Shown in pieces: positions 1 through 16,776 of a DNA stretch of 50,773 nt. The stretch is from an uncultured Clostridiaceae bacterium (lineage in GTDB: Bacteria > Bacillota > Clostridia > Lachnospirales > Lachnospiraceae), in the NCBI GenBank assembly GCA_949948825.1, contig CATLIJ010000001.1:1-50773 (forward strand). The letters run 5' to 3'. Within the stretch, counting starts at the first letter, position 1. Each line of letters starts with the position of its first letter. The notes under the pieces were generated by a model. The model was given only the letters and a program-made list of their open reading frames with translations. It had not been told where the DNA came from and did not search any database. Both the position numbers and the translations under genes were made by a program.

Positions 1-1
1 G

Positions 2-205
2 CTGCAAAAGACCATTTCCAAGGTCAGCGATGTGCTTTCTAACCCGTGGGTAGAGAGACTTTTGGAGAATGGAGCGATCACAGAACTTGACCGTGCTACG
101 GTGGTGGAGTTTATTGACAAGATTTATGTGTTTGAAGATAAGCATATTGAGATTGTCTATAAGTTCAGCGGGGAGTTTGACGGATTGTTTGTAAGGTCTG
201 TTTAA
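2..205 (+). CDS. C-terminal end of a large serine recombinase (DUF4368-like tail), partial at window edge
   Basis: Frame 2 reads LQKTISKVSDVLSNPWVERLLENGAITELDRATVVEFIDKIYVFEDKHIEIVYKFSGEFDGLFVRSV*. The 'ELDR..V..FIDKIYV.E...IEI.YKF' tail is typical of TnpX/TndX-like recombinases. Confidence 0.8.
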   Translation: MQKTISKVSDVLSNPWVERLLENGAITELDRATVVEFIDKIYVFEDKHIEIVYKFSGEFDGLFVRSV

Positions 206-230
206 GAGTATCCGTGAAATTTTAGACAAC

Positions 231-259
231 TTGCAATAGGTTGGGTAAAATGCTATACT
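231..259 (+). promoter_or_regulatory. Sigma-A-type promoter
   Basis: TTGCAA(231-236)-17 bp-TATACT(254-259) with extended TG. Confidence 0.55.
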
Positions 260-285
260 TATTTGGAACGGAGCGTGATACAGCC

Positions 286-645
286 ATGCCAAAAACCCAT
301 GAAAAGAATGGAATTATTTATTTTGATAAACCTTTTAAAACAACATTAGTGTCCTGGGTATTAGAACATGAATTGTGCGACAGCCTGGTTTTAGATAGAG
401 AAGAGCTGATTGACGATGGGTGTGATGAGTGGATCTATGTCCGTTGCTACGCCAGAAGCAGAGAGTATAATAACCGCTTATATTCCGATGTATTTCTGTC
501 AGAACTTAAAAACGAGGGATTGAGAGTGCTGTATGGCGCTGGATGTCAGCAGAACTGGAGCAGGCATTGGGGGAAAAGTATGAAAGTATTGGTTGATACA
601 AACGTTATTTTAGATGACTTGATGGGGAGGAAACTAGGCGAATAA
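286..645 (+). CDS. Hypothetical protein whose last 21 aa are a PIN-domain N-terminal stub
   Basis: ATG 286 follows GGAG and the promoter. The C-terminus MKVLVDTNVILDDLMGR (from ATG 580) matches the VapC/PIN start motif. Confidence 0.5.
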   Translation: MPKTHEKNGIIYFDKPFKTTLVSWVLEHELCDSLVLDREELIDDGCDEWIYVRCYARSREYNNRLYSDVFLSELKNEGLRVLYGAGCQQNWSRHWGKSMKVLVDTNVILDDLMGRKLGE

Positions 646-666
646 TATTTTGGTCTGTTCCCGCCT

Positions 667-1224
667 CCTGGTCATGGAGGAAATGATCCGGGGAAGGTGG
701 GAGTGGATGGAAGCCTGGAGAAGGATATTAACCTGGAGATTGCCAGGAAGCTGAAGGCATATCTGGAGGCGTCAGATGTGGAAGTGGTCATGACGCGGGA
801 AGAGGACAAAGGGCTTTATGGAGAGAAGGACAGCCGCAAGAAGATGGCAGATATGAAGAAACGCTGTGACTTGATTAATGAGACAAGGCCGGAACTGGTG
901 GTCAGCATTCACCAGAACAGTTACCATGAGGAAAGTGTCTCCGGAGGTCAGGTCTTTTACTATAAAGATTCGGAAAAGGGAAAGCAGCTGGCAGAGATTC
1001 TTCAAAAGCGGTTTGATTTTGTCCTGGGGGAGAAGAACAGAAGGCTGGCAAAGCCCAATGGAAATTATTACCTTCTGCTTCATGTGAAACAGCCAATTGT
1101 GATTGTGGAGTGTGGATTTCTGTCCAACTGGAAAGAGGCGAAAGCTTTGAATACAGAGGATTATCAGGATCGGATGGCATGGACGATTCATATGGGAATT
1201 ATGGAGTACTTAAACCGTCCATAA
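667..1224 (+). pseudogene. cwlD: N-acetylmuramoyl-L-alanine amidase (CwlD-like), 3' part only
   Basis: PGHGGNDPG, EKDINL, VVMTR, SIHQN and IVECGFLSN Amidase_3 motifs are present. The N-terminal anchor and the VxID preceding PGHGG are missing. Confidence 0.75.
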
Positions 1225-15108: not shown

Positions 15109-16776
15109 ATGGATGCAGAGAGAAAAAAGAAGACCATTGTAATCGGGCATAAAAACCCGGATACGGATTCCATCTGTTCAGCGATTTGCTACGCCAGACT
15201 GAAGAGGGCGATTACAGGCAATGCATATGAACCGCGGCGGGCAGGGCATATTAATGAAGAGACCCGGTTTGTGCTGGATTATTTTGGGGTGGATGCGCCC
15301 CATCCGGTGGAGAGTGTCAGGACCCAGGTGCGGGATGTGGAAATCCATGAGGTACAGGGAGTGGACAGAAATATTTCCCTGAAAAAGGCATGGAACCTGA
15401 TGCAGGACGGGAATGTGGTGACTCTTCCGGCTGTGAGCAGCGACGGGAAGCTGGAGGGGCTGATTACGGTTGGGGATATTGCCAAGACTTATATGAATGT
15501 GTATGACAGCAGCATTCTGTCAAAGGCACGGACCAGTTACAGCAACATTCTGGAAACTCTGGAGGGAGCTTTGCTGGTGGGAGATGAGACAAAATGCTTT
15601 GAAGAGGGAAAGGTTCTGGTTGCTGCGGCTAATCCGGACATGATGGAGTATTATATTTCTCCCCATGACCTGGTGATTTTAGGCAACCGGTATGAATCCC
15701 AGCTCTGCGCCATTGAGATGGAGGCAGACTGCATTATTGTCTGTGAAGGTGCAGCTGTGTCCATGACCATCCGCAAGCTTGCCCAGGAGCGGGGCTGTAC
15801 AGTGATTATGACTCCCTATGATGCTTATTTTGTGGCGCGTCTTATTAATCAGAGCATGCCTATTGAGTATTTTATGAGGACAAAGGGGCTGATCACTTTT
15901 CAGGATACGGACTGTATTGACGATATCCGGGATGTGATGGCAAGCAAGAGGCACCGGGACTTTCCTGTTTTGGACCGGGACGGCAGGTATCGGGGCATGA
16001 TCTCCCGCCGGAATCTTTTGGGAGCCAGAGGAAAGCAGATTGTTCTGGTGGATCACAATGAGCGGAGTCAGGCTGTGGATGGAATTGAAAATGCAGAGAT
16101 TTTAGAGATTATTGACCATCATAAGCTTGGCACAGTGGAGACCATAGCTCCGGTGTTTTTCCGCAACCAGCCTGTAGGGTGTACAGCTACCATTGTTTAT
16201 CAGATGTACCAGGAAAACCGTGTGGAAATCGACAAGGCCACAGCCGGACTTTTATGCAGCGCCATTATATCGGATACCCTGCTGTTCCGCTCTCCGACCT
16301 GCACGCCCATGGACCGGCAGGCAGCTCTGGCTCTGGCAGAGACTGCAGGGATTCAGGTGGAAGCCTATGCAGGGGAAATGTTTGCAGCAGGAAGCAACCT
16401 GAAGGGAAAAAGCAATGAAGAGATCTTTTATCAGGATTTTAAGCGGTTCAGCGCCGGAAAGGTGTCCTTTGGCGTGTCTCAAATCAGCTCTCTCAATGCA
16501 GAGGAGTTAAAGGAGCTGAAGGGACGGCTGTTGGATTATATGAAAAAGGTTCAGAAGGAGTCCACTGTGGATATGCTCTTTTTCATGCTTACCAACATCC
16601 TCACAGAGTCCACAGAGCTGTTATGTGTGGGAAACGGGGCAATCGGCCTGATTCAGATGGCGTTTCATGTGGATCAGAAAAAAGAGGAGGAGGACGGAGA
16701 GTCTTTGGAGCTGCCCGGAGTGGTATCCAGAAAGAAACAGCTGATTCCTGCGATTATGGTGGCCTGTGAAGGATAG
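15109..16776 (+). CDS. ppaC: Mn-dependent inorganic pyrophosphatase with CBS/DRTGG insert
   Basis: GHKNPDTDS, LVDHNE, IIDHH, SDTL and SRKKQ motifs; CBS repeats. Confidence 0.93.
   Translation: MDAERKKKTIVIGHKNPDTDSICSAICYARLKRAITGNAYEPRRAGHINEETRFVLDYFGVDAPHPVESVRTQVRDVEIHEVQGVDRNISLKKAWNLMQDGNVVTLPAVSSDGKLEGLITVGDIAKTYMNVYDSSILSKARTSYSNILETLEGALLVGDETKCFEEGKVLVAAANPDMMEYYISPHDLVILGNRYESQLCAIEMEADCIIVCEGAAVSMTIRKLAQERGCTVIMTPYDAYFVARLINQSMPIEYFMRTKGLITFQDTDCIDDIRDVMASKRHRDFPVLDRDGRYRGMISRRNLLGARGKQIVLVDHNERSQAVDGIENAEILEIIDHHKLGTVETIAPVFFRNQPVGCTATIVYQMYQENRVEIDKATAGLLCSAIISDTLLFRSPTCTPMDRQAALALAETAGIQVEAYAGEMFAAGSNLKGKSNEEIFYQDFKRFSAGKVSFGVSQISSLNAEELKELKGRLLDYMKKVQKESTVDMLFFMLTNILTESTELLCVGNGAIGLIQMAFHVDQKKEEEDGESLELPGVVSRKKQLIPAIMVACEG

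Follow-up and report, generated by a model that had tools for sequence, protein, structure and literature searches.

Large serine recombinase elements that split cwlD in gut Lachnospiraceae: a candidate family of sporulation-gene intervening elements

The window analysed here is a stretch of 50,773 nucleotides forming the start of contig C1 of the genome under study (G000), a metagenome-assembled Lachnospiraceae genome of 350 contigs and 82% completeness; the sequencing runs containing the window sequence are labelled mostly as mouse or mouse-gut metagenomes. Its first part carries, all on the forward strand, the 3' tail (67 aa) of a large serine recombinase at 2..205, recognised by DUF4368 (27.9 bits against a cut-off of 25), a cargo open reading frame (ORF) at 286..645 (119 aa from the ATG at 286, without Pfam or NCBIfam match), the right end of an element at 646..672, which represents the P arm of attR, and a 3' piece of cwlD at 673..1224.

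The cwlD piece comprises 183 codons, from the first zinc-binding His through the catalytic Amidase_3 domain onward, and contains no stops and no frameshifts. The stop-to-stop frame 646-1221, which begins YFGLFPPPGHGG..., has CwlD (TIGR02883) as its best family, with 205.3 bits over profile positions 7-189, the cut-off of 221.55 bits applying to the full-length protein and the 3' piece alone lying just below it. With 92% identity of the G000 gene to intact, syntenic genes of relatives, the split gene is by its sequence CwlD, comprising an anchor and an Amidase_3 domain with His/Glu/His zinc ligands and the catalytic Glu. In the window amidase the zinc-ligand Glu follows 16 residues after the first His, and by motif and spacing this His would be the counterpart of the zinc ligand His49, which C. 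difficile CwlD needs for function (bioRxiv 10.1101/2021.06.21.449279). The initial annotation had placed the amidase homology from 667 onward, behind a recombinase ending about 460 bp upstream; the order of the two genes stands and the recombinase stop lies 468 bp before the amidase piece, but the true cwlD begins at the His codon at 673, the preceding P and G codons being element end and not cwlD. It had also reported that no start codon precedes this His, and frame 646-1221 is indeed without ATG, GTG or TTG upstream of it. The identical element end stands before the identical His codon in six other genomes of the genus, which together with a common 7-bp core indicates that the split of cwlD is beyond chance.

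The 5' fragment of cwlD that had been predicted at the far end of the element was found on a second contig of G000, C26, at 15328-15478, the one strong match in this genome to the N-termini of 26 intact relatives. This piece has 48 codons, contains a hydrophobic stretch (the anchor) and terminates in VVIDSG, then CATGGAG (C26:15472-15478), after which 921 bp of non-cwlD sequence extend to the contig end. The same 7 bp form the core in the window (673..679, forward strand), where CA at 673-674, the predicted crossover, opens the His codon; the core being common to both contigs, exchange inside it would restore the reading frame. The expected in-frame join is thus borne out, exchange within CATGGAG yielding D-S-G-H-G-G-N-D-P from a window piece that starts HGGNDPG; alignment to an uninterrupted gene, that of the relative G015, agrees with it, the two pieces abutting there at the core, and the att frames agree in all eight tabulated carriers (8/8). 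A second, intact cwlD had been named as a finding that would speak against this interpretation, and none was found in G000 or in seven other split carriers, the sole candidate in G000, an amidase on C190, being rejected at just 29% identity.

Regarding the att sites, the right end 646..672 is conserved in G017, G027, G063, G066, G068, G070, L054 and L060, and its positions 652-658 form an inverted-repeat arm mirroring the left end on C26. The element-end arms mirror each other at positions +15 to +21 relative to the central CA in the seven tabulated close carriers, and in G028 they are also mirrored but of different sequence, the core being merely GGCA; on the basis of the arm symmetry and this shorter core, the crossover is predicted at the CA of the His codon. 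The right junction is bridged by contigs in 4/4 runs and the left junction likewise in 4/4 (7 runs from 5 studies, of which X3 and X5 are possibly the assembly's own source), and the bridging of both junctions in independent mouse-gut data sets excludes an assembly error. Both cwlD halves lie on a single contig in G027, G063, G068, L054 and L060.

The recombinase tail is 89.6% identical to the tail of the complete 571-aa recombinase of G017 and 80.6% identical to that of G027, and the complete recombinases of relatives have Resolvase, Recombinase and Zn_ribbon_recom domains. The remainder of the G000 gene falls into an assembly gap before the contig start, leaving 504 of about 571 codons unassembled, and neither this remainder nor the small ORF that precedes the recombinase in relatives was found among the G000 contigs. 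Hits on C252, C85 and C26:900-2480, at 21-33% identity, are other recombinases and were rejected as the missing part; the large serine recombinase gene at C26:900-2480 lies about 13 kb upstream of the 5' piece of cwlD, and C252:958-3985 holds a tandem pair of such genes, both loci falling outside the clade described here.

Comparative analysis of the genus detected cwlD in 48 of 51 genomes and the split at the first zinc-ligand His codon in 8/48 (G000, G017, G027, G028, G063, G066, G068 and G070), so that the shared split position for which a survey had been proposed is present in relatives. The 5' piece was seen in six of these eight carriers, the contigs of the other two ending too early. 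Among the 40 non-split genomes, 27 were read as intact and 13 were judged by open frames of at least 236 aa only; G069 and G119 had been flagged by position or short frame, and their cwlD proved intact. A family-wide draw found cwlD in 80 of 140 genomes with two short frames, one split (G105) and the other that of G119. A recombinase-first scan of GTDB yielded 45 loci, 11 whose recombinase reaches 54% identity or higher and 34 at 25-38%. The cwlD junction was present at 9 of the 11 close loci (five of the 11 being genus genomes already in the 8/48 count), with the remaining two contigs too short, and no cwlD piece was detected beside the distant recombinases within the DNA of those loci (0/34). 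In a quick tree the close recombinases group together with support 100 (11 rows; 82, not starred, once G028 is included), and the labelled members of this clade include L052 and L056, at neither of which cwlD is visible. An origin of the G028 element as an independent convergent invader is not supported, its recombinase joining the clade at 82% and its small ORF being the same. The type strain Otoolea muris DSM 111138 (locus L060), which is in culture, has a complete 4.6-kb element.

No close homologue of the recombinase was found in IMG/VR, GenBank phages or plasmids, where the best matches reach about 28-34%, and the nearest named recombinase among the eight plasmid matches listed is TndX, at about 30% identity. 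All nine informative close homologues sit at a single target codon (9/9), which is unusual since DUF4368 recombinases, the domain occurring in 0.73% of site-specific recombinases, belong to a mostly multi-targeting clade (PMC10083194).

The five complete elements measure 2943, 4239, 4599, 4610 and 5692 bp, and their only constant part is a promoter-like motif, the small ORF and the recombinase. Cargo is variable and includes one choline-binding-repeat protein, the others being without name (four cargo ORFs were scanned against families and the rest judged by eye); in the ORF lists, inspected by eye, no phage structural, replication or lysis genes and no relaxase, conjugation or resistance genes were recognised. 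Regarding the cargo ORF at 286..645, its first 88 residues are common to other family members and its last part is a different cargo module, truncated by the element end; near-identical counterparts occur in G017, G066, G068, G070 and L060, and window 552-597 matches the G027 cargo at 91%. The end of this ORF, window 580-645, reads MKVLVDTNVILDD... and, by its motif and with no family match, resembles the opening of a PIN-domain toxin gene cut at the element end. Beside the counterpart of this ORF in L058 (12266-12775), L060 (12270-12779) and L046 stands a cargo ORF with a DTGA motif, which suggests a retropepsin-like aspartic protease. The left end of the element (C26:15552-16399; L038:1722-2569) is filled by two copies, 77% alike, of a non-coding unit of ~370 bp, in which long hairpins are predicted and whose end resembles a terminator. 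This unit was also detected at L041:12921-13597, L060:8484-8872 and in L046, stands ahead of secreted cell-wall-repeat proteins in G017 and L060, and contains a 35-bp segment that recurs in other gut contigs at high depth; it is a candidate leader RNA, and an Rfam search of the G000 left end returned no family. Group II intron pieces (RF00029, RF02001) lie within family elements at L050:1-117 and L053:8054-8162.

The small ORF of 44-70 residues lies directly before the recombinase start or overlaps it in all 11 relatives with upstream DNA (11/11), with overlap in G027, G063 and L054. A 34-residue homologue was detected in G028 (E 5e-5), and none at E <0.5 at the 34 distant recombinase loci (0/34). 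The 44-residue form has no Pfam match over cut-off and no PDB fold match, was modelled alone as a single helix with an uninformative pTM of 0.38, and has 78 clusters resembling it; we regard it as a candidate recombination directionality factor.

Upstream conservation starts at TCATATT-14 nt-AATACG(C/T)T, 26-28 nt ahead of the small ORF; the DNA upstream of this motif varies among elements while the motif distance is fixed, and in L054 no more than about 100 bp separate the motif from attL. When compared with a sigmaE consensus, the 11 motifs, among which kin are not independent, have 2-4 mismatches, as do spoIVA promoters of the genus, and the best hit is in place in 10/11; among 2368 upstream windows of G000, 38 reach three or fewer mismatches, the level of a typical member, and 123 reach four. 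With a matrix built from spoIVA, spoIIIAA and cwlD upstream regions of the genus, the motif scores 6.0-8.5 bits (9/11) against a training median of 16.3. In C. difficile sigmaE promoters, ATA is the -35 mark (PMC3789822). The motif may be read by sigmaE, and, being nearly palindromic, it could also be an operator. Just 3' of the motif, TGTTAG is conserved over the predicted transcription start in L053, L055, L057, L058, L059 and L060, and, compared by eye on the other strand, it agrees with the SpoIIID box of C. difficile at 7/9 positions (PMC5025042). In G000 the motif, the small ORF and the full recombinase all fall within the assembly gap; we infer the module for this genome because both gap flanks are collinear with G017 and the end of C26 matches the G070 element (99.4% identity over the last 169 matched bases).

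A small-ORF profile of 48 sequences, searched against 400 Lachnospiraceae genomes, matched 21 places in 20 genomes, of which 20 places were taken further (G191 was left out). Nineteen of these homologues precede a recombinase or recombinase piece and 18 lie within elements at amidase or pdaB genes; for the other two no split gene could be assigned. Behind nine of the 20 stands an amidase piece that begins at the same His codon (three CwlD-like, five Amidase_3+SPOR, one Amidase_3 only), eight lie next to a piece of pdaB that opens at a Trp codon, the pdaB 5' piece being detected in 5/8, and one further homologue lies inside a pdaB-type element. Since the profile seeds came from cwlD elements, the amidase matches are partly circular; the pdaB matches are not. 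The Amidase_3+SPOR targets may, by analogy, be sporulation genes too. Upstream of the 20 homologues, 19 regions score at least 4.5 under a relaxed model, versus 61% of 242 same-locus windows (p 0.002, with several near-copies among the 20), and sigmaE-like motif scores are modest in distant members. At L195:5051-5918 the small ORF stands directly before a 5'-truncated pdaB and no recombinase was found on the contig, perhaps a leftover element, or one that is excised in trans; at L191:5682-7031 a retron-type reverse transcriptase (best family Ec67, below cut-off) lies near a degenerate pdaB element.

Regarding selection, the sister species G000 and G017 (support 99/90) both have a split cwlD with collinear element ends; between them the 3' piece has a dN/dS of 0.015, the 5' piece shows 13 synonymous and no other changes, and both halves together show 73 synonymous versus 6 other changes, the intact cwlD pairs that could be computed giving dN/dS of 0.024-0.043. 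The 3' piece is free of stops and frameshifts in 11 split carriers. By these measures both halves are under purifying selection, the low dN/dS speaking only in part for function since the insertion: recombinase dS is 0.083 (G066/G068) and 0.186 (L060/G070) versus cwlD dS of 1.38 and 3.0, and on the cwlD tree the split alleles need 7 changes and their union in one clade is rejected (p-AU 0.0007), so that many insertions are recent and the low dN/dS is partly older. The same values rule out a purely vertical, domesticated inheritance, and the element is a still-mobile parasite in a safe site, gained and lost repeatedly over the genus, and no fixed host organ. Strain differences in the recombinase tail, read by hand, are synonymous in 10 of the 13 listed.

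Regarding other sporulation genes of the hosts, spoIVA and spoIIIAA matches are kept in 8/8 carriers (in G000 merely as pieces at contig ends), and genome-wide G000 has unbroken sigK, sigE-like and pdaA genes. The three genus genomes without cwlD (G071, G072 and G073; 93-99% complete) are also without spoIVA and spoIIIAA matches, and sporulation has probably been lost there. The sigK gene is whole in G000, G017 and G068 and split in the cwlD-element carriers G063 (C79, C43) and G027 (C29), where two excisions would accordingly be needed.

Neither a rejoined cwlD nor an excised joint of the G000 organism was detected among the matches listed for seven runs, these being metagenome contigs, from which rare forms drop out. 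A gapped attP motif matches one JGI contig from a relative, L050, and gave no matches in IMG/VR. L050 contains the attP-type joint twice, 928 bp apart, enclosing a gene 76% identical to the G027 element left end, and has no recombinase; the contig represents either a circle or a tandem copy, and in both cases the element family makes an attP-type joint. An intron end lies just ahead of the attP arm of this recombinase-less mini-element.

The split, both junctions, the in-frame core, the arm symmetry, the site specificity and the conservation of the halves are seen directly, and the reading that we consider likely is that sigmaE drives excision in the mother cell, restoring cwlD there, with the spore keeping the element. 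By analogy with skin and gin, from which the directionality role, the sigmaE reading and the mother-cell confinement are taken, sigmaE in the mother cell would switch on the small ORF and the recombinase, the 44-residue partner would turn the serine recombinase toward excision, and attL x attR exchange at the CA would release a circle and rebuild cwlD in frame. The restored CwlD, without which spores of related bacteria fail to germinate properly, would then help to form muramic delta-lactam, and with excision limited to the mother cell the spore would retain the element. The cwlD gene of C. difficile is itself sigmaE-controlled (PMC3789822), and excision of the present element would be expected during sporulation.

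The alternative that survives best, although we think it unlikely, is an ordinary site-specific mobile element with low, untimed or stress excision, for which the His motif is a conserved landing site and cwlD is restored only where cells or lineages happen to lose the element. Its horizontal movement is clear, its nearest named relative is TndX (about 30%) in the mostly multi-targeting DUF4368 group (PMC10083194), related elements use the same motif in non-cwlD amidases, and yin of C. botulinum is excised at all time points (PMC10747680), all of which would suit untimed loss; however, the second, unrelated target family, pdaB with its Trp codon, is also a sporulation gene, the promoter-like motif keeps its distance while upstream DNA varies, and the integrated form stands alone among the matches listed for the seven runs, which gives no sign of frequent loss in vegetative cells. 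A dead-end insertion, in which the element stays, cwlD is a young pseudogene and spores germinate poorly or are not formed at all, is improbable in view of the 11 split carriers whose 3' piece lacks stops and frameshifts, the 73 synonymous versus 6 other changes between G000 and G017 with both genes split and element ends collinear, the largely synonymous strain differences of the recombinase tail (10/13 of those listed) and the intact pdaA and sigK of G000, even though the excised form of this organism is not among the matches listed for the seven runs, most of the recombinase (504 of about 571 codons) is unassembled in G000, the right-end cargo is scrambled, and some related elements (L191, L193, L195) are degenerate. 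Stand-alone translation of the 3' piece, from a start in the element end or from GTG 697, is very improbable: in-frame TTG or ATG codons in the element end, with the His retained, were detected in G017 and G063, but G000 has no such start, the starts are not conserved, and the protein made would be without the hydrophobic anchor and VVID strand, both unchanged on the separate 5' piece. Mis-assembly or a binning artefact, which 350 contigs, 82% completeness and junctions on two different contigs might suggest, can practically be dismissed, refuted as it is by the junctions bridged in independent runs and the single-contig halves of the five carriers named above.

If sporulation-timed excision in the mother cell is confirmed, a programmed DNA rearrangement would control the enzyme by which the spore cortex is marked for germination, in gut commensals that are common and probably rely on spores to pass from host to host. 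Confirmation would also account for cwlD and pdaB genes that look like 'pseudogenes', and for amidases called as truncated, in gut genomes. It would bring in a small family of directionality factors, give a clade regarded as multi-targeting a site-specific branch, provide compact integrase/att/partner sets for Lachnospiraceae genetics, and make cwlD a new target among 'skin'-type rearrangements. A wider interpretation, put forward tentatively and with limited credence, is that Lachnospiraceae harbour a clade, so far undescribed, of minimal phage-free and still-mobile cassettes for mother-cell wall-remodelling genes, each consisting of a sigmaE promoter, a 44-residue directionality factor and a DUF4368 recombinase and targeting cwlD, amidase+SPOR or pdaB genes, and that circles freed at lysis spread them; mother-cell excision would then gate muramic delta-lactam synthesis, and sporulation itself would be the route spreading the element and its secreted cell-wall-binding cargo between gut species.

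Known intervening elements of sporulation genes are skin, SPbeta, vfbin, gin and yin, and with these the cwlD element shares a split sporulation gene, a frame-restoring att core and a large serine recombinase (as a tail in G000 and as complete genes in relatives). Among the matches listed, mostly from open-access literature, no paper was found naming cwlD as a target of such elements; 'cwl' is absent from the main text of PMC5595907, PMC10747680 and PMC4191935 and from the supplement text, figures aside, of PMC4191935 and PMC6957869, and the supplement of PMC10083194 gives amidase activity in 5/1069 target clusters, unnamed and not enriched.

The closest likeness is to gin in gerE of Bacillus cereus ATCC 10987, which has the GirC recombinase and the 42-aa GirX (PMC5595907): both are non-phage elements in a mother-cell gene with a large serine recombinase and a tiny conserved ORF, and both have a short core enclosed by an imperfect inverted repeat, which attP carries and attB lacks, the arm symmetry around the CA fitting the attP layout of gin (PMC5595907). 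In contrast, gin comprises 28.6 kb with three recombinases, versus 2.9-5.7 kb with one here, and its excision has been demonstrated (PMC5595907), whereas excision of the cwlD element is predicted and the likeness of the small ORF to GirX is one of layout; the target here is an enzyme gene, cwlD, and the host a member of the Lachnospiraceae. In the skin elements of sigK, SpoIVCA acts with Skr in B. subtilis (PMC6957869) and CD1231 with CD1234 in C. difficile (PMC5025042); B. subtilis skr overlaps the recombinase gene start (PMC6957869), as the small ORF does in three of the present elements, but the skin directionality factor is under sigmaE control (PMC6957869, PMC5025042), which for the cwlD element is predicted only, and skin is prophage-like with a sigma factor as target, while cwlD elements have no recognised phage genes. 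Like yin in yabG of Clostridium botulinum V73, for which a recombinase, a putative directionality factor and a circular excised form are described, the present element is clostridial and lies within a sporulation enzyme gene; unlike yin, a prophage of a single strain, the cwlD family is non-phage and recurs across species (PMC10747680). The domain set Resolvase, Recombinase, Zn ribbon and DUF4368 is that of the TndX/TnpX type (Tn5397-like; PMC10083194), from whose transposons (Tn5397, Tn4451) the cwlD elements differ by a single target codon, no recognised relaxase or conjugation genes and an identity of about 30%. The cwlD gene is a real, recurrent and apparently unpublished target, and the element clade, apparently unpublished too, represents an already known kind of rearrangement.
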